Positions 7,454-47,469 of a stretch of 64,000 nucleotides of DNA are shown one piece after another. Source of the DNA: Anaeromyxobacteraceae bacterium (GTDB taxonomy: Bacteria > Myxococcota > Myxococcia > Myxococcales > Anaeromyxobacteraceae). The stretch is taken from the NCBI GenBank assembly GCA_047602405.1, contig JASGHJ010000001.1, positions 128,001 through 192,000 on the forward strand, written 5' to 3'. Each line of letters begins with the position of its first letter. Within the stretch, counting starts at the first letter, position 1. The translations under genes and the position numbers were made by a program. The notes beneath the pieces were generated by a model. The model searched no databases. It had not been told where the DNA came from and saw only the letters and a list, made by a program, of their open reading frames with translations.

Positions 7454-7474
7454 TGTCCGCCCCGGCGCGATGAT
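7454..7474 (+). promoter_or_regulatory. TGTCCG-N9-xAxxxT promoter motif (sirtuin)
   Basis: TGTCCG CCCCGGCGC GATGAT, 8 nt before GTG 7483. Confidence 0.6.
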
Positions 7475-7482
7475 CGCGCCCC

Positions 7483-8316
7483 GTGACGACCTCCGCTGCC
7501 ATCTCCGCCGCCGCGCTCGCGCTCCGCGAGGCCGAGGTGCTCCTCGTGGGCGCGGGCGCCGGCATCGGCGTCGACTCCGGCCTGCCGGACTTCCGCGGCG
7601 ACCAGGGCTTCTGGAACGCCTACCCGCCCTACGAGAAGCTCGGCCTCACCTTCGTGGACGCCGCGAACCCGGAGCACTTCGGGGACGACCCGGCGTTCGG
7701 CTGGGGCTTCTACGGCCACCGGCTCGGGCTCTACCGCGCGACCGTGCCGCACGCCGGCTTCGCGCTGCTCCGCCGCTGGGCCGAGGCCCGCGGGCTCGCG
7801 TCGTTCGTGTTCACCTCCAACGTCGACGGCCAGTTCCAGAAGGCCGGCTTCGACCCCGCGCGCGTCGCAGAGGTCCACGGCTCCATCCACCACCTCCAGT
7901 GCGCCGGGCCGTGCACCGAGGCCATCTGGGAGAACCGCGAGGAGGTCCCGGTCGACCTCGCGACGATGCGCGCCCGCGCGATCCCCCGTTGCCCGCGCTG
8001 CCGCGGCGTCGCCCGCCCGAACATCCTCATGTTCGGCGACTTCGGCTGGATCCCCGACCGCTCGACGAAGCAGGGCGAGGCCTTCGACGCGTTCCTCGAG
8101 GAGCACCGCGGGCGCCGCACCGTCATCATCGAGCTCGGCGCCGGGAAGGCCATCCCGAGCGTGCGCGTGAAGGCCGAGCGCCTCGCGCAGCGGCCCGGGG
8201 TCGTGCTCGTGCGGATCAACCCGCGCGAGGCCGACGGGCCGAAGGGGACGATCTCGATCCCGGCCGGCGCGCTCGAGGGGCTGGGCGCGATCCAGGCGGA
8301 GCTCGACGCCGGGTAG
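7483..8316 (+). CDS. Sir2-family NAD-dependent deacylase
   Basis: GAGAGIGVDSGLPDFRG, TSNVD, EVHGS, C..C/CPRC zinc site, RPNILMFGD, RINP. Confidence 0.92.
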   Translation: MTTSAAISAAALALREAEVLLVGAGAGIGVDSGLPDFRGDQGFWNAYPPYEKLGLTFVDAANPEHFGDDPAFGWGFYGHRLGLYRATVPHAGFALLRRWAEARGLASFVFTSNVDGQFQKAGFDPARVAEVHGSIHHLQCAGPCTEAIWENREEVPVDLATMRARAIPRCPRCRGVARPNILMFGDFGWIPDRSTKQGEAFDAFLEEHRGRRTVIIELGAGKAIPSVRVKAERLAQRPGVVLVRINPREADGPKGTISIPAGALEGLGAIQAELDAG

Positions 8317-8329
8317 TCCCGGGCGGCCG

Positions 8330-8350
8330 TGTCCGTCCCTCCGGTAGACT
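8330..8350 (+). promoter_or_regulatory. TGTCCG-N9-TAxxxT promoter motif (TPR/SNF2/SWIM genes)
   Basis: TGTCCG TCCCTCCGG TAGACT. Confidence 0.65.
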
Positions 8351-8455
8351 CCTCTCACCATCACGACGAGGCGAGAGCCGCGGCTCGACGACCCTCACCA
8401 ACCCCCGGCGGGCTCGCCGCCGGAACGGTGGCAATGCCGCGCGATGGAGGACCCG

Positions 8456-9079
8456 ATGCGCACGTTCCCCGACGTCCGTTTCCGCAAGCTCAACTCCGAG
8501 GCCCAGCACGCCGGGCGGCTGCTCGACGACCGGCGCTACGCCGAGGCCAGGGAGGCGTTCACCACCGCGCGCGCCCGCGCGCGCAAGCTCGGCCTCGACT
8601 CCGCGTACCTCGCGTGGGGCCTCGCGGTCGCGCTCGACATGACGGAGGAGACCGAGATGGCGTTCAAGGTCATCGCAGAGTCCGTCGCCATGGACCCGCT
8701 CAACCCGGCCGCGCAGCACTCGTTCGACACCATCGCCTGGAAGCTTCGGGCGACGCTCGAGGACCCCGACCGCGCGGCCGGCGACCCGTCGACGCCGCGC
8801 ATCTACGCCCTCCTCCTCGAGGCCGGCGAGGCCGACGTCGCCGCGCACGTGGCGATGGCGCGCCACCTCGACGCGACCGGCGACACGGCCGGCGCGCTGC
8901 GGCTCCTCGACTCGGTCACGCGGCTCGCGCCGGTCTCGCGCGACGCGTGGGCCGCGAGGGCCAGGGTCGCGCGCGCCGCCGGCGACGAGGCGCTCGCGGC
9001 CGAGTGCGACGCGCAGGTCGCGGCGCTCGGGACCGCGCGCATCCCGTTCGCGATCCCCGGCGAGCGGGCGGCGTGCTGA
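8456..9079 (+). CDS. TPR-like helical protein (paralog 1)
   Basis: All-helical pattern; near-identical blocks with 51979..52590 (DSAYL, DPSTPRxYALL..AGEAD..AHVAMAR); GGAGG RBS. Confidence 0.75.
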   Translation: MRTFPDVRFRKLNSEAQHAGRLLDDRRYAEAREAFTTARARARKLGLDSAYLAWGLAVALDMTEETEMAFKVIAESVAMDPLNPAAQHSFDTIAWKLRATLEDPDRAAGDPSTPRIYALLLEAGEADVAAHVAMARHLDATGDTAGALRLLDSVTRLAPVSRDAWAARARVARAAGDEALAAECDAQVAALGTARIPFAIPGERAAC

Positions 9080-9131
9080 GCGAGGGCGAACCGTCGCCGT
9101 CCGGCCACCGTGATATGGCCTGAGCGGAGCC

Positions 9132-11867
9132 ATGTCCGCCCCCCTCACGCTCACCCTCACCCCCGCGGGCCACCTCCGCCTGCGCGACGCCGAGCCCGGC
9201 GAGCCTGGCCTCGCCCGCGCGGCCGCCGGCCGCATCGCGGAGGCCTTCGAGCGCGGCACCGGCGCCGGGCTCCTCCACCTGGGCGCCGCCGAGGCGCGCA
9301 CGGACCTCCCCCCGGTCCTCGGCTTCTGGCGCGACCTCGGCCGCGCGTACGTGGCCGCGGCCTGCGCCCTCCCGGATCTCGAGGAGGCCCGCGAGCACGC
9401 CGCGCCCGCGCCGCGCGAGGGCGAGCTCGAGGCGCTCGCGGCCGCCGCGCCGCCGCTCCCGGGCGGTGAGTACCTCACCGCCGAGCTCCTCGCCGGCCTC
9501 TGGCGCGAGCTCGCCGCCGCCTGGCAGTCGGCGCTCGGCGCGCAACGCGGCACCGTGCAGGCGTGGCTCGCCGCGCAGGACCCGGCCTGGAGCGTCGTCG
9601 GCCGCGTGCACCTCCACCTCGCCGAGAACCGCGCCGACGAGGACCGGCCCTTCGCCTTCCTCGCGACCTACACGACCGGCCTCACCGCGAGCGGCAAGCC
9701 CCAGCACCGGCCGCTCGGTGACGCGGTCCGCGACACGCGCGCGAAGGACTCGAAGCGGCTCCTCGCGCTGCTCCAGCCCGTGCACCGGGCCTCCGAGCAC
9801 AGCGCGCTCGTGAAGGCGCTCGCGGACTCCGGCCAGCTCTTCGAGCCGCAGGCCTGGACACCGGACGAGGCGCTGAGGTTCCTGCGCGAGGTGCCGAAGC
9901 TCGAGGCGAGCGGCGTCATCGTGCGCGTGCCCGGGTGGTGGAGCGCCCGCAGGCCGCCGCGCCCGCAGGTCACCGTCTCGGTCGGCGAGCAGGCGCCCTC
10001 GGGCCTCGGGCTCGACGCGCTGCTCGACTTCCAGGTCCAGCTCACGCTCGACGGCGAGGCCATCACGGCGGAGGAGCTCCGCCGGCTGCGCGCGCAGACC
10101 TCCGGCCTCGCGCTGCTCCGGGGTCGGTGGGTGGAGGTCGACCAGGAGCGCCTCGACGAGATGCTCCGGCGCTGGAAGGCCGCGGAGCAGGGCGCGCGCG
10201 AGGGGCTCACGTTCGTCGAGGCGATGCGCCTCGTCGCGGGCGCCGAGCTCGAGGCGCGCTCGCCGCTCGCCGGGAGCGATCCGTCGTGGACGGGCGTGCG
10301 GCCCGGCGCCTGGCTCGCGGAGACGCTCGCCGAGCTCCGCGGCACGGGCGGCGCCGAGAAGGCCGACCCGGGCGCCGCGCTCCACGCGACGCTCCGGCCC
10401 TACCAGCAGGAGGGGCTCCGCTGGCTCTGGACGCTCAGCCGGCTCGGCCTCGGCGGCTGCCTCGCCGACGACATGGGGCTCGGGAAGACCGTGCAGGTGC
10501 TCGCGCTGCTCCTCGTGCTGAAGCGCCACCGCTCGCTGCCGGGCCCGCACCTGCTCGTCGCGCCGGCCTCGCTCCTCTCCAACTGGCGCGCCGAGGCGGC
10601 CCGGTTCGCGCCCTCCCTCCGGTTGCTGGTGGCGCACCCCTCGGCGACGCCGCGCCCCGAGCTCGAGGCGCTCGACGAGCAGGCGGTGGCCGATCACGAC
10701 CTCGTCCTCGTGAGCTACGGCTCCGTGCACCGCCTGCCCTGGCTCGCGAAGGCCCGCTTCGGCCTCGTCGTGCTCGACGAGGCGCAGGCCATCAAGAATC
10801 CCGGCGCGCGCCAGACCCGCGCGGTGAAGGCGCTGCCGTCGCGCCTCAGGCTCGCGCTCACCGGCACGCCAGTCGAGAACCGCGCGGGCGACCTCTGGTC
10901 CATCTTCGACTTCGTGAACCCCGGGCTCCTCGGCTCCGCGAAGGAGTTCGGCGCGTTCGTGAAGCGCGCGAGCGCGCCGGCGGCGCCTCCGCCGGAGGGC
11001 ACCGCCGAGCGGCGCTCGCCCTACGCCGCGCTCCGCGAGCTCGTCCGGCCCTACATCCTGCGGCGGCTCAAGACCGACCGCGCCGTCATCTCCGACCTGC
11101 CGGGCAAGACCGAGGTGAAGGCCTACTGCGGCCTCACGAAGCGCCAGGCCGCGCTGTACCAGGAGGCCGTCGAGGGGCTCGCGCGCGACATGCGCCGGAT
11201 GGGCGCGAGCGACCGCATGCGGCGCCGCGGCCTCGTGCTCTCGTACCTCATGCGCCTCAAGCAGATCTGCAACCACCCCTCGCACTGGCTCGACGACGGC
11301 GCGTACGACCCCGCCGACAGCGGCAAGTACGCGCGCCTCGCCGAGCTCGCCGAGGTCGTCGCCTCCCGCCAGGAGAAGGTGCTCGTCTTCACGCAGTTCC
11401 GCGAGATGGCCGACCCGCTCGCGCGCCACCTCACCACGCTCCTCGGCCGGCCGGGGCTCGTCCTCACCGGGGACACGAAGGTGAAGGAGCGCGGCGAGCT
11501 CGTGAAGCGCTTCCAGGAGGACGAGGACGTCCCCTTCTTCGTGCTGACGCTGAAGGCCGGCGGCACCGGCCTCAACCTGACGGCCGCGACCCACGTCGTG
11601 CACTTCGACCGCTGGTGGAACCCGGCGGTCGAGAACCAGGCGACCGACCGGGCGTTCCGCATCGGCCAGAAGAAGGCGGTGCTCGTCCACAAGCTCGTGT
11701 GCCGGGGCACGATCGAGGAGCGCATCGACGCCATGCTCGAGGACAAGCGGGCGCTGGCGAAGGATCTCCTCGAGGGCGGCGAGGAGCTGCGCCTCACCGA
11801 GCTCGACGACCAGGCCCTGCTCTCGCTCGTCTCGCTGGACTTGCGGGCCGCCAGCGCCGATACCTGA
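9132..11867 (+). CDS. SNF2-family helicase/ATPase
   Basis: LRPYQ, LADDMGLGKT, DEAQ, LTGTPVEN, GGTGLNL, DRWWNPAVENQATDRAFRIGQ. Confidence 0.95.
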   Translation: MSAPLTLTLTPAGHLRLRDAEPGEPGLARAAAGRIAEAFERGTGAGLLHLGAAEARTDLPPVLGFWRDLGRAYVAAACALPDLEEAREHAAPAPREGELEALAAAAPPLPGGEYLTAELLAGLWRELAAAWQSALGAQRGTVQAWLAAQDPAWSVVGRVHLHLAENRADEDRPFAFLATYTTGLTASGKPQHRPLGDAVRDTRAKDSKRLLALLQPVHRASEHSALVKALADSGQLFEPQAWTPDEALRFLREVPKLEASGVIVRVPGWWSARRPPRPQVTVSVGEQAPSGLGLDALLDFQVQLTLDGEAITAEELRRLRAQTSGLALLRGRWVEVDQERLDEMLRRWKAAEQGAREGLTFVEAMRLVAGAELEARSPLAGSDPSWTGVRPGAWLAETLAELRGTGGAEKADPGAALHATLRPYQQEGLRWLWTLSRLGLGGCLADDMGLGKTVQVLALLLVLKRHRSLPGPHLLVAPASLLSNWRAEAARFAPSLRLLVAHPSATPRPELEALDEQAVADHDLVLVSYGSVHRLPWLAKARFGLVVLDEAQAIKNPGARQTRAVKALPSRLRLALTGTPVENRAGDLWSIFDFVNPGLLGSAKEFGAFVKRASAPAAPPPEGTAERRSPYAALRELVRPYILRRLKTDRAVISDLPGKTEVKAYCGLTKRQAALYQEAVEGLARDMRRMGASDRMRRRGLVLSYLMRLKQICNHPSHWLDDGAYDPADSGKYARLAELAEVVASRQEKVLVFTQFREMADPLARHLTTLLGRPGLVLTGDTKVKERGELVKRFQEDEDVPFFVLTLKAGGTGLNLTAATHVVHFDRWWNPAVENQATDRAFRIGQKKAVLVHKLVCRGTIEERIDAMLEDKRALAKDLLEGGEELRLTELDDQALLSLVSLDLRAASADT

Positions 11868-11879
11868 GCCGGAGCGCGC

Positions 11880-12656
11880 GTGGCCTTCTACGGCGGATTC
11901 CCACCTTACGTCCCGGTCGCCGAGCGGCAGCGGCTCGCGCGGCAGGAGCTCGCGCGCCTGCGGAAGAAGGGCCACGCCCCCGAGCCGGTCGTCATCGAAG
12001 GCCGCCACATCGCGACGACGTTCTGGGGCAAGGCCTGGTGCGATCACCTGGAGGGCCACGCCGACCTCGAGACCCGGCTCCCGAGGGGGCGCCGCTACGC
12101 GAGGAACGGCGCGGTGATCGATCTGAAGATCACGAGGGGCGCCGTCGAGGCGCGGGTCATGGGGAGCGAGCTCTACTCCGCCTCCGTCGCGATCCGGCCG
12201 CTCGCGCCCGCCCGCTGGCGGTCGGTCCGGGAGCGCTGCTCCGGCAGCATCGGCACGGTGGTGGAGCTCCTCTCCGGGAAGCTCTCCGAGGCGGTCATGT
12301 CCGTGCTCTGCCACCGCGAGGAGGGCCTCTTCCCGGACACCGAGGAGCTCACGCTCGACTGCTCGTGCCCGGACGGCGCCTGGCTGTGCAAGCACCTCGC
12401 GGCGGTGCTCTACGGCGTGGGTGCGCGGCTCGACCAGCAGCCCGAGCTCCTCTTCACGCTGCGCGGCGTGGATCTCTCCGAGCTCGTCGCCCAGGCGGGG
12501 ACCGCGAAGAAGCTCGCGCGGCCCGCGCGGCAGAAGAAGCCGCTCGATAGGGCGAAGCTGGGGGCCATCTTCGGGATCGAGCTCGAGCGCGAGGAGCCCG
12601 CGCCTCGCCCGCGCCGCCCGGGCCGCCGGGCCACCGCACGGGCGCGTCGGACCTGA
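11880..12656 (+). CDS. SWIM zinc-finger protein (SNF2 partner)
   Basis: RLPRGRRYARNG, CSCPD...CKH, LFTLRG. Confidence 0.9.
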   Translation: MAFYGGFPPYVPVAERQRLARQELARLRKKGHAPEPVVIEGRHIATTFWGKAWCDHLEGHADLETRLPRGRRYARNGAVIDLKITRGAVEARVMGSELYSASVAIRPLAPARWRSVRERCSGSIGTVVELLSGKLSEAVMSVLCHREEGLFPDTEELTLDCSCPDGAWLCKHLAAVLYGVGARLDQQPELLFTLRGVDLSELVAQAGTAKKLARPARQKKPLDRAKLGAIFGIELEREEPAPRPRRPGRRATARARRT

Positions 12657-12905
12657 GCCCTGGACGGGGCCAGGGAGTAACGCCCCGGCCCCTCGCGCGA
12701 CCGACGTACGAGCAGGCATCGCCCCGACCGGGCCTCCGTCGGGCCCAGGTGGGTCCCACCGGATCCTCCCTGCCCCGGCGAGCCTCGACGTGGAGGCGTG
12801 TAGAGGTTTCCCCACGTGCGCACGGACCCGAACGCGCCCCACGCGGCACCCTTCCCCCACGGCTTCGCCGTGCAACGGTAGACCCTCCTCCGATCGCGAG
12901 GCGCC

Positions 12906-13915
12906 ATGCAGAGACCCCAGCCTGCAGCCCGGACGTCTGCACCGAGCCGGCCCACCCCGGAGGCCGACCACACGCGCGAGGCCTTCCGCGCCGCCGTGCT
13001 CGCGGGCCTCTCGCGCACGCCGCGGGCGCTCCCCTCGGTCTGGTTCTACGACGCATGGGGCAGCCGCCTCTTCCAGCGGATCATGCACCTCGACGGCTAC
13101 TACCCCACCCGCGTCGAGACCGAGATCCTGGAGCGCTCGGCGACCGCCCTCGTGGAGCGCCTCGAGGCGCCGCCCGCGGCTGTCGTCGACCTCGGCGCCG
13201 GCGACGGCAAGAAGACCCAGCTGCTCCTCGCCGCGGCGCGCGCCCGCGCGCCCGGGGTCACCTACGCGCCGGTCGACGTCTCGGAGGCCGCGCTCCACTC
13301 GGCGAGCGAGCGCATGCACGCCGTCTGGCCGGACCTCTCGGTGCGGCCCCTGCGCGGCGACTACGTCGAGTGCCTCGGCCGGGTGCGCCGCGCGCTCGCC
13401 GGACCGCTGCTCGCGCTGCTCCTCGGCTCCAACCTCGGCAACCTGGAGTGGGACGAGGCGGTCGGGCTCCTGCGCCGGCTGCGCGCCTCGCTGCGTAAAG
13501 GCGATCACCTCCTCATCGGGCTCGACCTCCTGAAGGACGAGGCCGTGCTGCGCGGCGCCTACGACGACGACGAGGGCGTGACGGCCGCGTTCAACCTCAA
13601 CCTGCTGGCGCGCATCAACCGCGAGCTCGGCGGCGACCTCGACCTCGACGCGTTCGAGCACCGCGCGACGTTCGACCACCGGCGCCCCGCCATGGAGAGC
13701 TGGCTCGTCGCGCGGCGGGCCACCTCCGCGACCATCGCCGGGGAGCGCCTCGAGTTCGGCGAGGGCGAGGCGATCCACACCGAGATCTCCTGGAAGTACA
13801 CCGAGGCCCAGGTGGCCGAGCTCGCGCGCGCCGCCGGCTTCGAGGAGGTCGCGCGCTTCCACGACGCGCGGCGCTGGTTCGTGGACGCGCTCTGGCGCGT
13901 GCCGGGGGCCGCACG

Positions 13916-13919
<4 letters not shown>
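12906..13919 (+). CDS. egtD: L-histidine N-alpha-methyltransferase EgtD
   Basis: FYDAWGSRLF, YYPTRVE, DLGAGDGKK, GSNLGN, AYDD.EGVTAAFN.N, IHTEIS.KY. Confidence 0.92.
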
Positions 13920-15160
<1,241 letters not shown>

Positions 15161-15169
15161 GCTCCACCC

Positions 15170-15862: not shown

Positions 15863-15961
15863 CGGGTCCTCGCAGCGGCGGCTGTAACGGCGGGCGGGCT
15901 CCCGAGTCCCACTCTCCGTGTGGCGGACGAACCCCCGCCCCGGACCCGGAGGAGCCGCCCC

Positions 15962-16612: not shown

Positions 16613-16626
16613 TCCGGATCCGTTCG

Positions 16627-16666
16627 CCCCGAGCGTCGGGCCGCGCAGCGGCCCGGAGACGAGGGG
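16627..16666 (+). repeat. REP-like palindromic repeat copy 1
   Basis: CCCCGAGCGTCGGGCCGC-GCA-GCGGCCCGGAGACGAGGGG; shares flanks with the 48584 and 52595 copies. Confidence 0.65.
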
Positions 16667-16714
16667 CGCAGCTCGTAGCAGTCCCCCACCGCAGCTCAAC
16701 CGAAAGGAAACACC

Positions 16715-16987
16715 ATGTTCCGTGAAGCCATGAAGGGTGCCGCCGTCGCCGCCGCCGTCTGCTCGATGTTCGCCGCGGGCACCGCCCAGGCGAGCGAGAA
16801 GCCGAAGGACGCCCCGAAGGTCGTGCAGTGCGGCGGCATCAACGCGTGCAAGGGCCAGGGCGCCTGCGCCGGCGCCGACAACTCCTGCAAGGCCCAGAAC
16901 TCCTGCAAGGGCAAGGGCTGGGTCGAGACGAAGACCGCGAAGGAGTGCACCGACAAGGGCGGCAAGGTCGTCGTCGCGAAGATGTAG
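16715..16987 (+). CDS. bufA2: BufA2-type periplasmic Cys-rich RiPP precursor (bufferin)
   Basis: Signal peptide (AQA) then [13 protein letters not shown]...[14 protein letters not shown]...EC..KGG, 6 Cys; AAAGGA RBS; adjacent DUF692 gene. Confidence 0.85.
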
Positions 16988-17060
16988 CCGGCACCTTCAC
17001 GCACCCCGGAGCCCGGGGCCGGCCTGCGCCGCACGCGCGGCCGGCCCCGGGGTTCACCGC

Positions 17061-17924
17061 ATGAACAGCTCGCTCGGTCACGGCATCGGCCTCCGCACGC
17101 AGCACTTCCCCCGGTTCATGGCGGCGCGCCCGCCTGTCGACTGGGTGGAGGTCGTCTCCGAGAACTTCATGGCCCCCGGCGGCCGGCCCATCGCGGTCCT
17201 CGAGAAGGTCCGCGCCGAGTGCCCGGTCGTGCTCCACGGCGTGTCGCTCGCCATCGGCTCGGTCGACCCGATCCCGGAGCGCTACCTCGCGGACCTCTCC
17301 GCGCTCGTGGACCGCATCCAGCCCGCGCTCGTCTCCGACCACCTGTGCTGGGGCACGCACCGCGGGCAGTACGTCCACGACCTCCTCCCGCTGCCGTACA
17401 CCGAGGAGTCGCTCGCGCACGTCACGGCGCGCGTGCACCAGGTCCAGGAGCGCCTCGGCCGCCCGCTCCTCCTCGAGAACCCGTCCACCTACGTCGCCTT
17501 CAACGACTCCACCCTGACCGAGTGGGAGTTCCTGGCCGAGCTCACGCGCCGCTCCGGCTGCGGGATCCTCCTCGACGTCAACAACGTGTACGTGAGCGCG
17601 CGCAACCTCGGCTTCGACGCGCTCGAGTACCTCCGCGGCGTCCCCGCCGGCAGCGTCGGCTACTTCCACCTCGCCGGCCACGCCGACCACGGCCGCTACC
17701 TCCTCGACACGCACGACCACGAGGTCCCCGAGGCGGTGTGGGCGCTGTACCGCGAGGCCGTGCGCCGCTTCGGCCGCGTGCCGTCGCTCGTCGAGTGGGA
17801 CGACGCCATCCCGCCCCTCGACGAGGTCGTCGCGCAGAGCCGGCGGGCCGCCGCCGAGGAGGCCACGGTGTTCGAGACCACGGCGCTCGGGGCCGAGGCC
17901 GGCCCCCGGAGGCTCGCGTCGTGA
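17061..17924 (+). CDS. bufB: DUF692 multinuclear non-heme iron oxidative enzyme (MNIO)
   Basis: GIGLR, EVVSENFM, HGVSLAIG, SDHLCW, DLLPLP, LENPSTY, LLDVNN, HLAGH, DTH, EWD. Confidence 0.93.
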   Translation: MNSSLGHGIGLRTQHFPRFMAARPPVDWVEVVSENFMAPGGRPIAVLEKVRAECPVVLHGVSLAIGSVDPIPERYLADLSALVDRIQPALVSDHLCWGTHRGQYVHDLLPLPYTEESLAHVTARVHQVQERLGRPLLLENPSTYVAFNDSTLTEWEFLAELTRRSGCGILLDVNNVYVSARNLGFDALEYLRGVPAGSVGYFHLAGHADHGRYLLDTHDHEVPEAVWALYREAVRRFGRVPSLVEWDDAIPPLDEVVAQSRRAAAEEATVFETTALGAEAGPRRLAS

Positions 17925-18694
17925 CGCTCGCCGAGACCCAGGCGCTCTTCCACGAGGCCATTACCGGGCAGGAGCCGCTCGCGGCGGAGCGCCTGGAGGC
18001 CTGCTTCGCCGGCACGCCCGAGCTCCCGGCCACGGACCGCGTCGCGATCTACTCGGGCATGTACCTCGCGCGGCTCGTCGACGCGCTGCGCGCCACCTAC
18101 CCCGCGCTCGCGCGCTTCCTCGGCGACGAGACCTTCCACGCCCTCGCCGAGGACTACCTCGTCCGCCACCCCTCGGAGCACCACGACGTCGGGAACGTCG
18201 GCCGACACCTCCCCGCCTTCCTGCGCGCCTTCCCGGACCCGGAGCGACCCGACCTCGCCGACCTCGCCGCGCTCGAGTGGGCGCGCCAGGAGGTCTTCTT
18301 CGCGGCGGAGACCGCGCCGCTCGGCCGCGAGGCGTTCGCCGACCTCGAGGGGCCGGCGTTCCTCCGCACCGGCCTCGCGCTCTCGCCGGCCCTGCGGCTC
18401 GTCGTGCTCGATCACGCCGCGGCGGACCTGTGGCGCAGCGTCGAGGCCGGGGAGCCGCCCGGCCCACCGGCGCCCGGTCCCTCCGCGGTCGCGGTCTGGC
18501 GCCGCGGCTTCGAGGTCTTCCACGGCGCGCTCGCGCTCGACGAGGCGGCCGCGCTCGACGCCGCCGCCTCCGGCGCGAACCTCGGCGCGATCTGCGCCGC
18601 GTTCTCCGGCCGGGAGGACGCCGCCGCGGCGGCGTTCGAGGCCCTGTCGGGCTGGCTCGCGGAGGGCTGGGTGGCGGCCCTCGTCGACGCCTGA
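17921..18694 (+). CDS. bufC: DUF2063 (HvfC/BufC-like) MNIO partner
   Basis: RVAIYSGMYLARLVDALRATYP, ADLAALEWA; GTGA overlap with MNIO stop. Confidence 0.85.
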   Translation: MTLAETQALFHEAITGQEPLAAERLEACFAGTPELPATDRVAIYSGMYLARLVDALRATYPALARFLGDETFHALAEDYLVRHPSEHHDVGNVGRHLPAFLRAFPDPERPDLADLAALEWARQEVFFAAETAPLGREAFADLEGPAFLRTGLALSPALRLVVLDHAAADLWRSVEAGEPPGPPAPGPSAVAVWRRGFEVFHGALALDEAAALDAAASGANLGAICAAFSGREDAAAAAFEALSGWLAEGWVAALVDA

Positions 18695-18759
18695 CCCGCC
18701 GACAGCACGTTGCCGGGACGGGTCCCGGTCCGCACCGTTCGAGCGGACCTCCGCCCGCG

Positions 18760-27912: not shown

Positions 27913-28188
27913 ATGCCCTCGCTCACGCTGAAGAACATTCCGACCCCGGTCCTCCAGGCGCTGCGCGAATCCGCCGAGGCATCCCGGCGCAGCATCAACC
28001 AGCAGGCCATCCAGCTCCTCTCCAGGGCGCTCGGCCTCGAGGGAGGCGGAATCTCCCCCGAGCGCGTCGTTGCGCAGGTCGAGGCCTGGCGACGCCTCGC
28101 AGGTCGCTGGAAGTCCGACCTCTCGCCCGAACAGGAGATCGCGGCGATCCGCAAGGCCCGGACCCGGGGCCGGAAGGTCGACCTGTGA
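27913..28188 (+). CDS. FitA/VapB-type ribbon-helix-helix antitoxin
   Basis: MPSLTLKNIP..V..ALR..A...RRSINQQ; GTGA overlap with PIN toxin. Confidence 0.85.
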   Translation: MPSLTLKNIPTPVLQALRESAEASRRSINQQAIQLLSRALGLEGGGISPERVVAQVEAWRRLAGRWKSDLSPEQEIAAIRKARTRGRKVDL

Positions 28189-28580
28189 GGCTCCTCGACA
28201 CCGACACCTGCATCTGGCTGCTTCGCGGTGACGCCCGCGTGCTCGAGCAGCGCGCCCGCATCCTCGACGAGGTCGCGACGACCTGGATCACCGCCTCCGA
28301 GCTCTTCTACGGTGCGGCGCGCTCCAGGCACCCGGAGTCCAGCGCTGCCCACGTGCTGGAGCTCCTCAACACGATGCCGATCCTCGAGCTCGACGCGGTG
28401 TCATGCCGCATCTTCGGGGAGGCGAAGGCCCTGCTCGAGAGGCGCGGCGAGCGGCTCTCCGATGCCGACCTCCTCATAGGCGCCATGGCTGCCGCGCGCG
28501 GAGCCGTCCTCGTCACGGGCAACGTTCGCCACTTCTCACGCATGCCTGGCGTGACCCTCGAGAGCTGGCTCCGCCCCTGA
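28185..28580 (+). CDS. vapC: VapC PIN-domain toxin
   Basis: LLDTDTC, SELFYGA, DADLLIGA, LVTGNVRHF. Confidence 0.92.
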   Translation: MRLLDTDTCIWLLRGDARVLEQRARILDEVATTWITASELFYGAARSRHPESSAAHVLELLNTMPILELDAVSCRIFGEAKALLERRGERLSDADLLIGAMAAARGAVLVTGNVRHFSRMPGVTLESWLRP

Positions 28581-28589
28581 GGTCTCATC

Positions 28590-31500: not shown

Positions 31501-32369
31501 GGCTCGCGCTCGCGGCCACCCTCCGCCCGTTCCTGCTCCGCCGCACGAAGGCCGAGGTCGCCCCGGAGCTGCCGGCCCGCACCGAGCTCGTCGTGCCGGT
31601 GGTCCTCTCCCCGCCCGAGCTCCAGCGCTACGAGGAGTCCCGCCGCGCGATCGTCGCCCACCTCCAGAAGCTCAGGGACCTCCCGAAGGCGAAGAGGCGC
31701 ATCCACTTCCTCGCCGCGCTCACCGAGCTCCGGCTCCTCGCGTGCCACCCGCGCCTGCGCGACCGCACGAGCGCGCTCCCCTCCGCGAAGCTGGAGCGCT
31801 TCCTCGATCTCTTGCCCGAGCTCTCCGAGGGCGGCCACCGCACGCTCATCTTCAGCCAGTGGACCCGCCACCTCGCGCTCGTGCGCGAGGCGCTCGACGC
31901 GGCCGCCGTCCGGTACCTCTACCTCGACGGCGAGACGCCGCCCGAGGCGCGCGACGCGCTCGTGCGGAGGTTCCAGGGCGGCGAGGGCGCGCTCTTCCTC
32001 GTCTCGCTGCGCGCGGGCGGCAGCGGCCTCAACCTCACCGGCGCCGATTACGTCGTGCACCTCAATCCGTGGTGGAACCCCGCCGTCGAGGATCAGGCCA
32101 CCGACCGGGCGCACCGCATCGGCCAGACCCGGCCGGTCACCGTGCTGCGCCTCGTCTCGAGAGACACCATCGAGGAGAAGGTCCGCGCGCTGCAGGAGAA
32201 GAAGCGCCGCCTCGTCGACGGCGTGCTCGAGGGGATGGGCGCGGCGAGCCGGCTCTCGCTCGAGGAGCTCGAGGCGCTCGTCATGGACCCGCCGCGGCCG
32301 GGGCCGCCGCGGGGACCTCCTGGGGAGGAGGTGGAAAGCCCGCGAGCGGGATCTCCTTCAGGTGCGTGA
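28590..32369 (+). CDS. SEC-C + SWIM + SNF2 helicase fusion protein
   Basis: CPCGSG...CC (SEC-C), CSC....CLH (SWIM), LADDMGLGKT, DEAQ, WWNPAVEDQATDRAHRIGQ. Confidence 0.9.
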   Translation: MLPALAFAAEPSFPYACAAPADEACPCGSGLGFDRCCALPELAERQLTRLAVSRWASARGVEAQLEVMLREVIRSAPGSGAGVPRGLGAGFSVLDALAPPTGYRGSDYHLPERLRLACFDFLLEEASLVREARTHDATQLPRPEHPGLALLFDRLLELRTEALLHASPRPVRALAHGELTILERLQRIRFVEHRSTSCPGQGPTHPGFELELKGASQRPLPMPRCSCGSDVGCLHVLAAIDLTLSRIVDPLRAGAWHGLADELATPDWSRALEALKDARVPTGLARRPRPEQLGRRPLAFVLGRDGMARLLVTPWLMPAAGDAPERAATGADLWDRGLDPRDEDRSVLGAFGILKKSFSGRGGVTARIERGQDLQALLGHPRVHLDTATGPRVAVSTGHLGLLVRPATAASGADAGVEVLTAVDGEPVPTEALEQPGKDDSSALVWIDRARARVKIVNPGAEPAAVAIVLASLARVKGRFPVEAEPALMEQLDVLQGVLPLAVDPGLVAEDVPPSTTLLVRLELLAHGLAVTLLALPLVGATPQPPGAGPARVLSVVNGRRRQVWRALEAERAAALALVEALQLPDPESAALAWELDDDAAAHALVTRVREAAADRASDDPGSTASLPPLLVEWVGHEVRCAGAFRLDDFKVKVGGRKRDWFGVDGRVEVDGVSVGLAALLRALREGRTVLRADDGALLALGGELAARLAGLEQVLTRDDEGDLAAGPAAALTIADLVDDGAVLDASPDFLALRDRMRASAARPCPVPETFQGALRPYQAEGFRWLARLSGWAPGGVLADDMGLGKTLQALALLCERAGKGPALVLAPTSVCANWRDEAARFAPGLRVSLYRDADRSTGVDALRGLGPGDVLVASYGLLVSNAAAFEEATFATLVIDEAQAVKNAATRRAQVVRALKAEFTVALSGTPLENHLGELWSLYRIVYPALLGSWASFKLRFAEPIEQFGREDARLALAATLRPFLLRRTKAEVAPELPARTELVVPVVLSPPELQRYEESRRAIVAHLQKLRDLPKAKRRIHFLAALTELRLLACHPRLRDRTSALPSAKLERFLDLLPELSEGGHRTLIFSQWTRHLALVREALDAAAVRYLYLDGETPPEARDALVRRFQGGEGALFLVSLRAGGSGLNLTGADYVVHLNPWWNPAVEDQATDRAHRIGQTRPVTVLRLVSRDTIEEKVRALQEKKRRLVDGVLEGMGAASRLSLEELEALVMDPPRPGPPRGPPGEEVESPRAGSPSGA

Positions 32370-34091
32370 TCTTGAGCTCGGCGAACCGCCGCCCAGTCCG
32401 CGGCTGCAGGAGCCGGAAGTACTCGGTCGCCTCCGGCGCGTTGAGCGCGTCGCAGGCGCGCAGGAGCTCCGCCTCGCTCATCGGCGCCTTCGGCACGAGC
32501 AGGAAGAAGTTGTTCGAGCACCAGCGCCCCTCGAGATCCGGCGCCGCGAGCACGTGGTCGCCGGTCCGGCGCACGAGCAGCTTCGGCCGCTCGTACAGCG
32601 CGGGGTCGCCGAGGTTGAGGTAGTCGCCCGCCGCCGCGTCGAAGCGCGAGGGGTCGAGCTGGATCCACCGGCCCCCCCAGGCGAGCCGGCCCGCGGCGAT
32701 CTCGCCGCGGCCGAAGATGAGCGGGCGGCAGCGCGGCCCGTCCGGCCGCGCGAGGAACAGCCGCGCCCGCACGTTGCCCGAGTGGACGCCCTCGCGGATC
32801 GTGAAGAGCGCCCCGCCGGCGCGCCGAGCCCACGGAGCGCCGCGAGCCGCGCCTCGACCGCGGGCGAGAGGCCCAGGTTGAACCGGTGCTCCCGGTTCTC
32901 CGCGAACACCCGCTGCCGGATGAGCGCCGAGGGGCTCCTCGCCGGCCCGCCCTCGCCCACCTCCGGCACGCACCGCACGGCGTGCTCCGGCCCGGGCGGC
33001 CCGACCTGCGCGACCACCGTGCAGGCGTCGAGCCCGACTCCCCGGAACGCGAGCCCCCAGTGCGCGAGCTCCTCGAGCGCCGTCTCCTCCACGAGGAACC
33101 GCCGCACGCCCGGGTAGGCCTTGAGGAGCAGGATGTCCGGCAGGACGAGCCCGACCCGGCCGCCCGGCCGCACGAGCCGCACCGCGAGCTCCGTGAACGG
33201 CACCGAGCTGTCGAGCTTGCCGCTCCGCGCGGCCACGTACCGCGCGCGCACCGCCGCCGACGCGCGCGCGCCGAGCGCCGCGCCCCAGGGTGGGTTCGCG
33301 ACCGCGACGTCGAAGCGCGCCGGGCCCCACGCGACGCCGAGCAGCGACTCGCCGGCCCGCACGTGGCCCTCCGCCGGCGCGGCGCCACCCGCCGCGAGCC
33401 AGAGCCCCGCGCGGCAGAGGTCCGCCGCGAGCGGGTCCACGTCCACGCCGAACACGCAGCGCCGCACCACGTCCCGCAGCGCCCGCCGCGCGGCCGCCGC
33501 CGGGACGGCGCCCTTCGCCGGCCGGGCCCCGTCGCCGCCCGCCCGCGCCTGCGCGACGTGCCCCGCGAGCTGGCGCGCCGCCTCGAGCAGGAGGTGCCCC
33601 GCCCCGCACGCGGGATCCACGACGGTGAGCCCGAGCAGCGCCCGGTCCGGCCGCGCCGGCCGGGCGGCGAGGACCTCCGCCACCACCGGCGCGAGGGCCC
33701 GCTCGACGACCGCCCGCGCGACCGCGGCCGGCGTGTAGAAGGTCCCGCGCCGCCGCCGCACCCCGCGCGTGCCGCCGAGCGCCAGGCGCAGGTCGCCGAG
33801 GTGCTCCGGCGTGACCACCGCCCAGTCCACGGCGGCCGAGGCGAGCGCGCGCTCCACCCGCGCCGCGCCCGGGCGCGCCGACGGCGGCAGGACCGCCCGC
33901 GGCCAGGGCAACCCCGCGACCGGGATCCCCCGCGCCGCCGCGGCGAGCCGGAGCGCGACCCCGAAGGCGTGGCGCACGAGCGCCGCCCGCGCGCGGCCGC
34001 GACCGGCGCCACGCAGCGCCCCCTCGAACGCGCCGGCGAGCGCCGCCGCTCCGGCTGCGGGCTCTCGGGTGGGTGCTGGCCGGCGCGCCAT
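32281..34091 (-). pseudogene. N6-adenine DNA methyltransferase (Eco57I/TaqI-like) with frameshift near 32815-32825
   Basis: FYTP, DPACGAG, GVDVD, NPPW in one frame; TaqI_C-like specificity region (PKLLVRRTG...LN..., ELKITHLKEIP) continues in another frame; may be a sequencing error. Confidence 0.8.
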
Positions 34092-35178: not shown

Positions 35179-35190
35179 GCGGGCCGGGCG

Positions 35191-35211
35191 TGTCCGTGCC
35201 GGTGCGATCCT
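35191..35211 (+). promoter_or_regulatory. TGTCCG-N9-xAxxxT promoter motif (HD gene)
   Basis: TGTCCG TGCCGGTGC GATCCT, about 120 nt before ATG 35334. Confidence 0.5.
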
Positions 35212-35333
35212 CCGCTCATCCGTGAGAGAGGAGACGCCGACGCCGACCCGTTCTTCGACGAGCTCGAGACGGAGCGGCCGCGGGCGCTTGCCTGAGGTGG
35301 GACGGGCTGCCGGTGCCGTATCATCGGGGGACC

Positions 35334-35969: not shown

Positions 35970-36216
35970 AATGCCTGCCGTTGGTTGAGCGCGCGGGCGG
36001 TCCCGGTGTAGCGATCGACCTCGGAGGTGGTCGCTCAGAAGGCCGTTGCTACGTTCGGCGGTCCTGCCAGGAACCCCGTCCCCGAGACCGGCCCGCGCTG
36101 CGAATGGGTACCACGGTGTGCCGTACCTGGGCAGATGCATGCCTGGGAAGGGCGTGAAGCAGTGTCCTAGAAGCTACCCCGCGGCGCAGCGACCGCCTCC
36201 TTCCCCGGAGGTGGTC
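35967..36216 (+). ncRNA. Candidate IS110 bridge RNA region
   Basis: Non-coding left end with hairpins and short matches to reconstructed target and donor junctions. Confidence 0.55.
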
Positions 36217-37471
36217 ATGGAAGGAATCGTTGTCGATCGTGTCTGTGGACTCGACGTTCACAAGGAGCAAGTGACGGCCTGCGTGCTGCTGGGAGAGGGC
36301 TCCAGGCTGCGCAAGTTCGTGAGGGAGTTCTCGACGTTCACGTGCGACTTGCTGGCGCTCGTGGAGTGGCTGCGCGAGGAGCACGTCACGCACGTGGCCA
36401 TGGAGAGCACGGGCGTCTACTGGAAGCCCGTTTACGCGGTGCTGGAGTCGGCGGGCGAGCTCGAGCTCGTCGTTGGCAACGCGCAGCACATGAAGAACGT
36501 CCCAGGCCGCAAGACGGACGTGAAGGACTCGGAGTGGATCGCCCGACTCGTGAGGATGGGGCTGATCCGCAAGAGCTACGTGCCGCCGCTCTACCTTCGC
36601 GACCTACGGGACCTCGTTCGGTACCGACGCTCGGTCGTCCAGGCCCGGACGTCCGAGCGCAATCGACTACAGAAGGTCCTCGAGACCGCGAACGTGAAGC
36701 TCGCAAGCGTTGCCTCGGATGTCTTTGGCAAGTCTGGCATGGCGATGCTGCGAGCGATGGCCGATGGCGAATCCGACCCGCGCAACCTCGCGAAGCTCGC
36801 CGAAGGGCTCCTACGTAAGAAGATCCCCGAGCTCGAGGCCGCCCTCGACGGCCGGCTCCGCGACCACCACCGGTACATGTTGCGGCTACAGCTCGACCGG
36901 CTCGACGCTGCTGACCGCGACGTCGACACGCTAGAGAGGGAGATCGAGCGCCGACTCGAGCCCTATCGCGAGCAGGTCAAGCTGCTTTCGACGATTCCGG
37001 GCGTGAAGGTCCAGACCAGCGCGTCACTTCTCGCTGAGATCGGCCCCGACATGTCCGTCTTCGGCGGCCCGCGCCACCTGGCGAGTTGGGCTGGCGTCTG
37101 CCCCGGGAACGACGAATCGGCCGGGAAGCGGCGCTCCGGGCGTTCGCGGAAGGGGAACGTTCACCTCCGGTCGACCCTGGTCGAGGCTGCCGGCGCAGCC
37201 ATCCGCACCAAGAAGACCTACCTGCGAGACAAGTACTTCCGCCTCAAGGCCCGCCGAGGACACAAGCGAGCCACCTTCGCCATCGCCCACAAGATCCTCA
37301 ACGCCGCCTATGAGAATCCTCACGAAACACGTACCGTACGAGGACCTCGGGGACACCTACCTCGACCGGGTCGACGAAAAGCGCGTCGCCAAGAACCTCG
37401 TTCGCCGCCTTGAGCGCCTCGGCTATAGCGTGACCGTCACCTCACAGACACCCGAGGCGGTCACCTCCTAA
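36217..37471 (+). CDS. IS110 DEDD recombinase/transposase (apparent +1 frameshift at 37314-37318)
   Basis: GLDVHK, MESTGVYW, RKTDVKD, SWAGVCPGNDESAGK; typical C-terminus YEDLGDTYLD...LVRRLERLGY lies in shifted frame, stop at 37471. Confidence 0.92.
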
Positions 37472-37537
37472 CCCCGGCATTTCGAAGCAGCGTAGGGTCC
37501 GCGGAGCGGGCCTGAAGGCGAGGGGCGGCAGCGGCGA

Positions 37538-37559
37538 TGTCAGACCCTGGACATATGTT
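37538..37559 (+). promoter_or_regulatory. TGTCAG-N10-TATGTT promoter-like motif
   Basis: Matches TGTCRG-N10-TAnnnT geometry upstream of ORF 37595. Confidence 0.45.
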
Positions 37560-37594
37560 CAGCCTGTCTCGCTGAACCGCCAGGAGCTGACCCC

Positions 37595-38146
37595 ATGCCC
37601 ACCCCCGCCCTCATCGACGTCTCCAGCTACACCGCGCCTCCGACACCCCGCCCCCACTCCGCGAGCCGCCTCGCCCTCCTCCTCTCCCGCTCCGACGCGG
37701 GCGGGGCGCCGGGCAGCGTCTCCCCTGCCGTCCTCGCCGAGGCCCGCGCCCTCGGCATGGCCACAACCGCGGCGCTCGTGAACGTGCTCCTCGCGGGCGC
37801 GCTCCGGGTCCCGCAGCGCGACCGCTCCGGCGAGGCCGCCTGCGACCTCGCCGGCGCCCTCCACCTCGAGACCACCCTGCCCCGCCTCCTCGCGCTGGTG
37901 GACGTGGGCCGCACGCCGCTCTCGCTCTACCGGGCCGCGGTGCGGGCGATCGGCCGCATGGGCCCGGCCGCGCTGGGGCCCGTCGGCGAGGCCGTCGAGG
38001 AGGCCCGGGCCCGGGTCGAGGCCCACCGCGGCGAGGGCGAGGAGCGCGCGTTCTCCTCGGCCGTGGCCCGCCTGGGCCGCCACCTCGAGGCCGCCGCCGC
38101 CGTGAACGCCGCGCTGCGGGAAGCGGGGCCGTCCGTCGCCGCGTAG
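37595..38146 (+). CDS. Hypothetical helical (HEAT-like) protein
   Basis: AGGAG RBS; ACDLAGALHLETTLPRL, AVRAIGRMGPAAL. Confidence 0.6.
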   Translation: MPTPALIDVSSYTAPPTPRPHSASRLALLLSRSDAGGAPGSVSPAVLAEARALGMATTAALVNVLLAGALRVPQRDRSGEAACDLAGALHLETTLPRLLALVDVGRTPLSLYRAAVRAIGRMGPAALGPVGEAVEEARARVEAHRGEGEERAFSSAVARLGRHLEAAAAVNAALREAGPSVAA

Positions 38147-38182
38147 GTAGAAGGAACAGGCTCACCTGGGTCAAGGCGGGGA

Positions 38183-38203
38183 TGTCCGCCCCGTCGGTAG
38201 AGT
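38183..38203 (+). promoter_or_regulatory. TGTCCG-N9-TAxxxT promoter motif (addAB)
   Basis: TGTCCG CCCCGTCGG TAGAGT, 8 nt before in-frame GTG 38212. Confidence 0.65.
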
Positions 38204-38211
38204 GCTCCCCG

Positions 38212-44792: not shown

Positions 44793-44801
44793 GCTCCGCC
44801 C

Positions 44802-46412: not shown

Positions 46413-46421
46413 GCAGCTGAT

Positions 46422-46455
46422 CCCCCCTCTCCCCCCGCAGGCCGGGTGAGGGGGG
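46422..46455. terminator. GC-rich hairpin between convergent genes
   Basis: CCCCCCTC...GAGGGGGG inverted repeat; no U-tract. Confidence 0.45.
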
Positions 46456-46466
46456 CCCCCGGAGCC

Positions 46467-47441
46467 TCAGCACCCCGCGTGGAGCTCGTCCGCCGCCCTG
46501 AGCACCTCGGCCCCGAGCTCCACCTTCACGACCCACGCGGCCGGCAGCGCCGCCTCGCCGAGCGCGGCGCCCAGCAGGTTCCCCGCGATGGCCCCGGTGG
46601 AGTCCGAATCGCCGGAGTGGTTCACCGCGAGCAGCACCCCGTGCGCGAAGTCGCGCGCGACGAGCGCCGCCGCGAGCCCGATCGCGAGCGCCTCCTCCGC
46701 GACCCAGCCCCCGCCGAGTGTCTCGAGCGCCTCCGGCGTGGGCTCCCCGCGCGCCGCGAGCCCGAACGCGCCCCGCAGCGCGGCCACGGTCTCCTGCGCC
46801 CCCGGCACGCCCTCGAGCTCGCCCGCCACCGCCCGCGCGGCCTCCCGCAGCGCCTCGCCGCGCGCGACCCGCGAGACGATCGCCGCGAGGGCCCCGCCCG
46901 CGAGCCAGCCGGTGGGGTGACCGTGCGTGATGGCCGAGAGCGCGCAGCCCGCCTCGAACGCCTCCCTCGGCGCGAGCGCGAGCCCGATGGGCGCGACGCG
47001 CATCACGGTCCCGCAGCCCTTCGAGTCGTTGAGCGGCGCCGCCGGGGTCCCCATCCGCCCCGAGCGCAGCGCGGAGAGGCAGGTGTTCCCCGGCGCGCGC
47101 CGCGCGTGCAGCGCCGGCGTCGCGAGGAGCCAGCCGTCCAGCGTCGCGCCCGTGCCGGCCGGGACCCGCTCGCGCTGCGTGGAGAGCCAGCGCAGGTACG
47201 CATGCCAGCCCTCGACGGCGAGGCCGGGCGAGCCCGGCGCGCGGGCCCGCACGAGGGCCTCCGCCGTGAAAAGCGTCATCTGCGTGTCGTCGGTGATCTC
47301 GGGCTCGACGAGGTCGGTCAGGCCCCTGGGCCCGTGCGCCTCGCGGATCGCGCGGAGGTTCAGGAACTCGATCGGCGCCCCCAGGGCGTCGCCGAGGGCG
47401 CCGCCGAGCAGGCAGCCGCGGAAGATCGATCGGGTGGGCAC
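46467..47441 (-). CDS. ADP-ribosylglycohydrolase (DraG/ARH family)
   Basis: GALGDALG, ITDDTQM, GCGTVMR, ITHGHP, HSGDSDSTG. Confidence 0.92.
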   Translation of the reverse strand: MPTRSIFRGCLLGGALGDALGAPIEFLNLRAIREAHGPRGLTDLVEPEITDDTQMTLFTAEALVRARAPGSPGLAVEGWHAYLRWLSTQRERVPAGTGATLDGWLLATPALHARRAPGNTCLSALRSGRMGTPAAPLNDSKGCGTVMRVAPIGLALAPREAFEAGCALSAITHGHPTGWLAGGALAAIVSRVARGEALREAARAVAGELEGVPGAQETVAALRGAFGLAARGEPTPEALETLGGGWVAEEALAIGLAAALVARDFAHGVLLAVNHSGDSDSTGAIAGNLLGAALGEAALPAAWVVKVELGAEVLRAADELHAGC

Positions 47442-47448
47442 GGAGAGA

Positions 47449-47469
47449 AGTGTTGCGGGGGTACGGACA
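47449..47469 (-). promoter_or_regulatory. TGTCCG-N9-xAxxxT promoter motif (ARH)
   Basis: Minus strand TGTCCG TACCCCCGC AACACT, 7 nt before GTG 47441. Confidence 0.6.

Follow-up and report, generated by a model that had tools for sequence, protein, structure and literature searches.

A TGTCCG promoter class with a nine-nucleotide spacer that tracks a second pafBC pair in an Anaeromyxobacteraceae bacterium and its relatives

The DNA analysed here, referred to as the window, is a stretch of 64,000 nucleotides (nt) covering C1:128001-192000 (contig JASGHJ010000001.1) in the genome of an Anaeromyxobacteraceae bacterium (G000; 6.16 Mb, 74% G+C). It contains five copies of a bipartite promoter element, in which TGTCCG is followed by a 9-nt spacer and a -10-like hexamer (N9 class). 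An earlier, sequence-only reading had taken these sites for a general DNA-damage regulon of the PafBC type. The five-site feature is genuine and conserved across the family, but core repair genes carry the canonical PafBC motif TGTC[AG]G-N10-TAnnnT (N10 class), and comparison of the sequences indicates that N9 belongs to a second regulon, restricted to the family, whose accessory genes code for nucleases and for the processing of ADP-ribose and which tracks a second pafBC pair (pafBC-B). PafBC-like in design but non-canonical in its 9-nt spacing, N9 is most likely a paralogue-specific promoter class activated by pafBC-B beside the canonical PafBC repair regulon. We consider it probable that PafBC-B activates these often leaderless promoters by a re-spaced form of sigma adaptation.

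The N9 promoter class

A direct check of the window letters recovered all five 21-mers of the sequence-only reading at their positions and on their strands (Table 1). All are intergenic and in sense orientation to the downstream gene, and the gene labels hold in profile matches (SIR2, TPR, SNF2, SWIM, HD_4, PD-(D/E)XK, UvrD with PD-(D/E)XK, NERD helicase and ADP_ribosyl_GH). The hexamer had been placed 7-8 nt before a GTG start at three sites, and the distances measured at 7454, 38183 and 47469 are 8, 8 and 7 nt. TGTCCG-N9-NAnnnT occurs exactly five times in the window, compared with an average of 0.67 in 100 shuffles, none of which had more than 4. The full consensus of the earlier reading gave 5 matches versus 0.01 expected, but this pattern was fitted to these very sites. 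Bare TGTCCG is not enriched within the window, where it is under-represented (29 found, 41 expected), and was rejected as a motif on its own.

A scoring matrix was trained on 80 N9 sites of relatives; its fixed positions were inherited from the pattern of the earlier reading, so only its spacer and flank preferences are independent. Across the genome it placed the five window sites at ranks 2, 6, 8, 10 and 11, and the top 11 matches, which include C1:110364, 120927 and 121093 and C2:388242, 392028 and 2292334, are all intergenic (an approximate term here, as the custom dicodon model that called the 5316 genes misses atypical ones). The 35191 site, which had the lowest score of the five in two matrix scans, is 143 nt from the ATG of the HD gene, and a second -10-like hexamer, TATCAT, lies 8 nt before the same ATG; single weak sites such as this could be inactive. 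The distance of the 8330 site from the TPR start is 114-126 nt. A spacer-8 version of the five-site matrix matched mostly coding DNA and was rejected. An N9 site at a TROVE gene (C1:1103180), which adjoins genes read by eye as rtcR, rtcB and rtcA, was outside the top 32 of the matrix and was not counted.

The logo of the 80 sites reads (C)(R)TGTCCG-TCCC-N5-TAnnnT, with at most 0.4 bit per position in the -35 region. Each of the six core bases is important: the exact core had 40 matches and no single-base variant more than 2. A start codon lies 6-8 nt past the hexamer in 22 of the 62 N9 sites with TA, versus 33 of 594 other intergenic TAnnnT hexamers. This excess argues for a real -10 and puts the element at about -27 to -22 relative to the inferred start sites; that of PafBC, at -28 to -23, is one base further upstream. 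For mycobacterial PafBC the consensus tGTCgg(N10)tA(N3)T and activation by sigma adaptation have been described (PMC8635444; here and below, statements on the literature refer to the parts of each source that were covered). The proposed PafBC-type bipartite promoter with a 9-nt spacer was borne out: it has a GTC element and a sigma-70 -10, no -35 information, and frequent leaderless starts. The element is non-palindromic, at best a GTCC-GTCC direct repeat. Two other readings of the motif were rejected: the logo has no shared upstream element, as an extracytoplasmic function (ECF) sigma promoter with TGTC as its -10 would need, and no TG at -15/-14, as expected of an extended -10.

When spacers of 5-14 nt were scanned over the whole genome, TGTCCG had 25 matches with N9, 23 of them intergenic, versus 14 and 12 with the same-frame spacers 6 and 12 (6 intergenic each). 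For TGTCAG there were 32 matches with N10 (30 intergenic) and 0-6 with other spacers; copies of repeated elements make up at least 15 of the 32. TGTCAG and TGTCGG almost never occur with a 9-nt spacer. Nine of the 25 N9 matches cluster in C1:96-176 kb, one of them (C1:121093) preceding ARPP-1. If the N9 sites were chance matches in DNA of 75% G+C, the shortage of bare TGTCCG in the window and the resemblance of about half of the 25 loose matches to background would be readily understood, but for the N9 class this explanation is refuted, with next to no probability left to it, by the shuffle test, the matrix ranks and the excess of leaderless starts, and also by the co-occurrence with pair B, the restriction to family f1 and the conservation at orthologues described below.

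The N10 class precedes genes for ssb, UvrD, RadA-type and RecN-type proteins (the names radA and recN are our own reading of the domains), CarD, ParA, RmuC, PolB-exonuclease and PD-(D/E)XK proteins, and looser copies were seen by eye ahead of ruvC, uvrA and one recA. The upstream regions of the two recA copies, lexA, uvrA and ruvC contain no N9 site. The view of N9 as the general DNA-damage regulon is not supported, and a single motif for the whole damage response was rejected.

Some side observations concern these genes and the N10 promoters. The reading frame of lexA (C2:1748978-1749672; L161, L162) changes near codon 28 and divides the gene in two, through an indel of the assembly or a genuine lesion; an SOS-box-like GTTCAG is found just upstream. 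The ssb gene with its N10 promoter is present twice in inverted orientation (C1:5868 and 20445), by duplication or as an assembly artefact. About ten dispersed copies of a gene for a protein of about 610 amino acids (aa), each with a near-identical N10 promoter and mostly leaderless, possibly represent a damage-induced mobile element; the tested copy had no Pfam match. A repeated TGTCAG-N10 site at C1:600290 (L157) has five look-alikes. The copy that was read is followed by a 645-aa gene with a Cas12f1-like TNB domain (TnpB-like); a mobile nuclease may in this way be controlled by PafBC. A TGTCCG-N10 site at C2:1252664 (L142) is 220 nt upstream of a gene for an RNA polymerase factor of the CarD family.

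The second pafBC pair

The PafBC-like regulator expected outside the window was found: the genome has six WYL matches, two of them single genes and the others two tandem pairs, pafBC-A and pafBC-B, each coding for wHTH-WYL-WCX proteins (Table 1). Profiles of pair B align end to end with PafB (E 2e-33) and PafC (E 1e-22) of Mycobacterium smegmatis, while DeoR-family and other WYL entries reach E 1e-6 or weaker; the alignment (A1) behind the pair-B profile had one A-type row among 12. With HTH_PafC, PafC-B scores 31.7 bits (cut-off 32) and PafC-A 97.6. The named relatives of PafB-B are Anaeromyxobacter proteins, and no relatives were found in viral contigs with the query used. A quick tree was made of 62 PafB sequences. 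In it the 21 A copies cluster with six A-type PafBs from families f6 (presumably Myxococcaceae) and f4, and 31 B copies form a clade of their own (support 100 for both); one long-branched B-type row was not placed.

In the M. smegmatis structure the GTC is read by R46 and R50 of PafB, with its thymine held by E42 and A43. The wing makes contact with sigma region 3 and the beta flap, and D62 of PafC (Asp/Glu62) contacts sigma region 4; binding of single-stranded DNA (ssDNA) is assigned to WYL arginines, R211/R214 in PafB and R201/R204 in PafC (PMC8635444, PMC11804915, PMC6789036; PDB 7P5X, 9FND and 6SJ9). All 27 A-type PafBs have R46-x-F-E49-R50-D-K52 and a 21-residue wing segment. R50 and K52 are kept in 62 of 62 sequences, whereas E49, present in 27 of 27 A-type proteins, is found in none of the 35 B-type and B-like ones, where B copies have Thr, Ser or Gly. 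R46 is replaced by Lys in 27 of 32 B copies, this genome included, and the wing segment of PafB-B has 19 to 24 residues where measurable. The equivalents of PafB R214 and PafC R201/R204 are kept in pair B. The changes in PafB-B and PafC-B fit a shifted register.

In relatives, pafB-B is often fused to, or follows, an extra HTH-less WYL or WYL-WCX unit (L084:17328-18881, L092:10178-10756, L094:10170-10664), which the copy of this genome does not have. A third PafB helix type, DK[KR]WTRDK, occurs in G014, G017 and G053 (L047, L123, L125) without accompanying N9 sites.

Co-occurrence of motif and regulator was examined in 75 genomes, with the reversed pattern counted in the same genomes as control. 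In the 34 genomes of family f1 with pair B, TGTCCG-N9-TAnnnT was found 211 times versus 44 for the control (31 genomes above control); the 10 f1 genomes without pair B had 19 versus 14 (5 above), and the 31 genomes of other families 121 versus 258 (3 above). In each of these groups the N10 motif exceeded its control (250 vs 57, 76 vs 13 and 623 vs 335). A stricter N9 pattern was present in 23 of 44 f1 genomes, in none of 141 of f6, and in 2 of 256 non-f1 genomes overall. The two are also linked physically. Of the 21 listed genomes with pair B, 12 were used for this, most of them with long contigs; 31 of their 82 N9 sites were within 50 kb of pafB-B and none within that distance of pafB-A, with at most 1.6 expected. 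Within 7 kb, 34 N9 sites were found at the 25 B-type loci, of which 15 had one or more, compared with 1 at 26 A loci; a wider count (46 vs 0) used windows partly placed around known sites. In 7 of 18 relatives the operon that contains pafBC-B has an N9 site at its head, and N9 sites flank a B-type gene in family f4 (G053). The addB-like orthologue, picked by protein match alone, has an N9 site ahead in 11 of 13 genomes. All nine with pair B are among these, two with C at the first position and three (G020, G051 and G059) with an N10 site as well; of the four without pair B two have N10 and two still N9.

We propose that pair B would bind the N9 element and pair A the N10 element. The PafBC-B heterodimer would bridge DNA and the housekeeping RNA polymerase at a position one base nearer the -10 than that of ordinary PafBC, and its binding would activate transcription via sigma adaptation. 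The trigger may be a nucleic acid in the WYL tunnel, by analogy ssDNA, and in some lineages pair B might feed back on its own operon. A complex prediction for the N-terminal part of PafC-B with sigma region 4 scored 0.00; its controls were not folded, and the result was not used in either direction.

A number of observations speak against this proposal. The sigma-contacting D62 of PafC is Asp in pair A but variable in pair B and Trp in this genome, and its loss weakens the claim that docking to sigma is the same. At PafB R211, pair A has His and pair B mostly Tyr, and Trp70 of the wing is likewise replaced in both pairs. Good N9 sites precede addB-like or ARG (ADP-ribosylglycohydrolase) genes in three genomes in which pair B was not detected, G063, G094 and G055, with only two WYL matches each; the G055 assembly is 98% complete in 6 contigs. 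Such genomes could reflect a recent loss of pair B or assembly gaps, or pair A could tolerate N9. Of the 14 ARG orthologues, which were also picked solely by protein match, only 5 have an N9 site, that of G055 included. Ten of the 25 B-type loci, including that of this genome, have no N9 site within 7 kb, and the clustered N9 sites of this genome are 57-122 kb from its pafBC-B. N10 sites lie ahead of the B-like locus in G014, and a TGTCCG-N10 site is found ahead of the rmuC-pafBC-B operon in G020 and G059. The linkage could also come from a shared accessory hotspot. It must be noted that the relatives are not independent samples; the patterns are strong but do not give valid P values, and the P value of the linkage overstates its significance.

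It is conceivable, although we think it unlikely, that a single reader, either pair A or a mixed dimer of PafB and PafC, accepts both spacings, in which case N9 would be a weaker or differently tuned variant and pafBC-B a co-resident target. The persistence of N9 sites in three genomes without detected pair B, the presence of both classes at the three addB-like genes named above and the N9 or N10 site that often precedes the pair-B operon itself would all fit. Family f6, however, has A-type PafB and the N10 motif, yet the strict N9 pattern occurs in none of its 141 genomes; the near absence of TGTCAG and TGTCGG with a 9-nt spacer and the N10 promoter of the addB-like gene in two of the four B-less genomes are also difficult to reconcile with a reader that accepts both. 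The reader might be something else, an alternative sigma factor, a single-gene HTH-WYL protein or a non-WYL activator of the same accessory regions. We give this little weight: the hexamer past the element is a normal TAnnnT, the GTC triplet recognized by PafB R50 is intact in the element, as R50 itself is in pair B, and N9 matches pair B closely in its phyletic distribution. Orphan N9 sites do exist, this genome has two further single WYL genes, and single-gene HTH-WYL-WCX regulators are found behind N9 sites in two relatives (L087, L134), but these are the only two of the loci read.

Regulon content and comparison with known systems

In this genome N9 sites precede ARG, sirtuin, ARPP-1, AddAB-like and SNF2 genes, and a DSP-PTPase at C1:109872 adds a phosphatase part beside ARG and HD. 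The N9 loci of relatives, where most genes are directly behind the site and some deeper in the operon, code for ARG, PARG-like macro domain and ARPP-1 proteins, DSP-type and HAD phosphatases (HAD_SAK_2, PTP-SAK), HD, vWA, YbjN and TPR proteins, TY-Chap1/3 chaperones, AddAB-like enzymes, SbcCD, HNH proteins, AAA ATPases, PLD-helicase type IV restriction enzymes and extra WYL proteins. The genes are patchy; with the queries used, addB-like was found in 13 and ARG in 14 of 43 f1 relatives. In the window no ADP-ribosyltransferase or sirtuin adjoins ARG; the sirtuin gene is 39 kb off with the same promoter class. Under the activation model, the N9 regulon would consist of accessory genes for ADP-ribose removal, phosphatases, chaperones and nucleases, and its job would be defence and reversal of phage ADP-ribosylation.

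This gene set resembles the ARG-centred systems, which Iyer et al. 2022 (PMC9503650, section 3.8) predicted to reverse phage ADP-ribosylation. Their parts list has ARG with rhodanese-phosphatase, HD, HAD and calcineurin-like phosphatases, vWA, TY-chaperones, ARPP, Macro, nucleases, helicases and a WYL regulator, and the N9 genes amount to nearly the full list; a WYL regulator is common to both. The published systems have no ADP-ribosyltransferase or sirtuin genomically coupled to them. The difference is that here the parts are scattered, with separate promoters that share one motif, and that a sirtuin and AddAB-like enzymes are among them. A role in defence, or in removing phage-made ADP-ribose adducts, is a prediction in that paper as well as here. 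The operons described there are under one-component WYL or Nudix repressors thought to sense ADP-ribose, and section 3.8 gives no DNA site, whereas the regulator linked to N9 is of the two-subunit PafBC type and the geometry of its site suggests activation. Pair B might nevertheless bind and repress, with an inducer relieving the block as proposed for the WYL regulators of ARG systems. The matching gene set, the position of the element between -35 and -10, where a bound protein could block polymerase, and the non-conserved sigma-contact residue of PafC-B are consistent with repression. We find it the least probable of the ways in which N9 might be read by a protein: with at most 0.4 bit per position in the -35 region the N9 promoters would be expected to be weak unaided, the constant spacing to the -10 suits an activator, and the element is non-palindromic and the regulator a PafB/PafC-type pair.

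Returning to activation by PafBC-B, the similarities with mycobacterial PafBC are the tandem wHTH-WYL-WCX pair, the non-palindromic GTC element with a housekeeping -10 and no -35, and the retained R50, K52, R214 and PafC arginines; pair A with the N10 class matches the canonical arrangement. What differs is the occurrence outside Actinobacteria with two pairs per genome, the 9-nt spacer, the strict TGTCCG often followed by TCCC, the changes at E49 and mostly R46 of PafB-B with its variable wing length, the absence of a conserved D62 in PafC-B, and the targets, which are accessory ADP-ribose and nuclease genes and not core repair. DriD, BrxR and CapW are homodimeric WYL regulators that bind palindromic operators, and in its non-palindromic element the N9 class differs from these and from SiwR. 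SiwR of M. smegmatis is a WYL homodimer on a palindrome, needs the -26 region and has a small regulon of its own beside PafBC (PMC10693628), and DdaA of Moraxellaceae is a WYL activator that ties anti-phage genes to the response to damage; its binding site is about 50 bp upstream, and it is considered to act without sigma adaptation (PMC12392091). Both are WYL activators, but neither is a PafB/PafC duplicate.

In Myxococcus xanthus, MXAN_1359/1360 have been named pafBC, and according to one paper 24 of 51 LexA-affected genes have a PafBC-binding sequence (PMC9705874, PMC12288472). This is likewise a myxobacterial pafBC pair, but the A-type PafB of f6 groups with pair A and not with pair B. The M. 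xanthus passages and the part of the PMC9705874 supplement searched contained no PafBC motif, second pair or N9 class, and no report of a second pafBC pair or of the N9 motif was found in the literature, subscription journals and bioRxiv supplements not being covered. What drives the LexA-independent damage response of myxobacteria was posed as a question in PMC12288472, and the N10 class at ssb, uvrD, radA- and recN-type genes, uvrA and ruvC offers a testable answer. In the literature covered, sigma adaptation has been shown only for mycobacterial PafBC. A natural activator pair with promoter sets that differ by one spacer base and one sequence base would be a handle on its specificity. The predicted ARG-centred anti-phage systems would gain a concrete regulator, a predicted binding site and likely activation where repression was proposed, and the N9 motif can be used to nominate unknown genes as parts of defence.

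A bolder reading, which we offer only tentatively and hold to be possible rather than probable, is that the duplicated PafBC constitutes an orthogonal sigma-adaptation code, in which an altered helix reads TGTCCG one base nearer the -10. One cell would then have two insulated damage programmes, one for core repair and one against phages, in which ADP-ribose is stripped from host macromolecules and nucleases are deployed. The WYL tunnel of the second heterodimer contains a Tyr, and an additional WYL unit is often present; its ligand may be a nucleic acid that is phage-specific or ADP-ribosylated and not plain ssDNA, and mobile defence genes would join by gaining a 21-bp leaderless promoter.

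Features in and around the window

The canonical N10 site at 37538 had been overlooked by the sequence-only reading. The addBA operon may be under dual control, by this N10/SOS-box-like site and by N9, as in three relatives. The 183-aa protein encoded behind the N10 site had no Pfam or NCBIfam match, and its Atlas matches were mostly hypothetical proteins.

Table 1. Promoters, genes and regulator pairs. Plain positions are those of the window; positions with C1 or C2 are those of the genome (G000).
Feature	Position	Strand	Remark
N9 promoter TGTCCG-N9-GATGAT	7454..7474	+	rank 8; likely leaderless
Sirtuin (SIR2 NAD-dependent enzyme), 277 aa	7483..8316	+	PF02146, E 2e-20
N9 promoter TGTCCG-N9-TAGACT	8330..8350	+	rank 2; best match of the window
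TPR protein	8456..9079	+	alternative start 8444; TPR genes behind N9 sites in relatives too
SNF2 ATPase with DUF3670, 911 aa	9132..11867	+	domain match
SWIM zinc-finger protein	11880..12656	+	domain match
N9 promoter TGTCCG-N9-GATCCT	35191..35211	+	weakest of the five; look-alike at the matching place in G073
HD_4 (SpoT/Mesh1-like) hydrolase, 211 aa	35334..35969	+	domain match
Canonical N10 PafBC-type promoter TGTCAG-N10-TATGTT	37538..37559	+	overlaps SOS-box-like CTG-N7-GTTCAG
183-aa protein behind the N10 site	37595..38146	+	open reading frame; directly upstream of addB-like gene
N9 promoter TGTCCG-N9-TAGAGT	38183..38203	+	likely leaderless
AddB-like PD-(D/E)XK nuclease, 1082 aa	38212..41460	+	domain match
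AddA-like UvrD helicase-nuclease, 1111 aa	41457..44792	+	below NCBIfam AddA cut-offs
NERD nuclease-helicase, 536 aa	44802..46412	+	domain match
ADP-ribosylglycohydrolase (ARG), 324 aa	46467..47441	-	PF03747, E 1e-66
N9 promoter TGTCCG-N9-AACACT	47449..47469	-	likely leaderless; orthologous site in G073 is TAGACT
pafBC-A	C1:2006840-2008896		tandem wHTH-WYL-WCX pair
pafBC-B	C1:232518-234517		tandem wHTH-WYL-WCX pair; 40 kb beyond the window
~610-aa gene copies	C1:210180, 429801, 1659297; C2:657726, 1175865, 2199375, 2830440, 2927599, 3045627, 3332328		

For the window genes PADLOC matched only generic entries (helicase, methylase or WYL); ARG, sirtuin and HD had no match, and no complete known defence system was named; no RNA entry is listed for positions 7300-9300. 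An IS110-family transposase is located at 36046-37413, between the HD gene and the N10-driven gene. Positions 27913-34091 code for a FitA-like RHH antitoxin, a PIN toxin, a second SNF2 ATPase with SEC-C (strong match to the DpdE profile) and an N6 methylase, with no N9 site ahead. An nhaA-I RNA motif (RF03057, 44 bits) at 1239-1287 is upstream of a gene for a 441-aa membrane protein. EgtD/EgtB-like genes (Methyltransf_33; DinB_2 with FGE-sulfatase) and a small precursor followed by an MbnB/TglH/ChrH-family enzyme of ribosomally synthesized and post-translationally modified peptides (RiPPs) are found at 12996-15160 and 16730-18694. The region just upstream of the window (C1:64000-112000) has a lower G+C content, is rich in insertion sequences, and holds a PDC-S68 RecD-like helicase, a type IV restriction-like PLD-helicase and a DSP phosphatase adjoining an N9 site.

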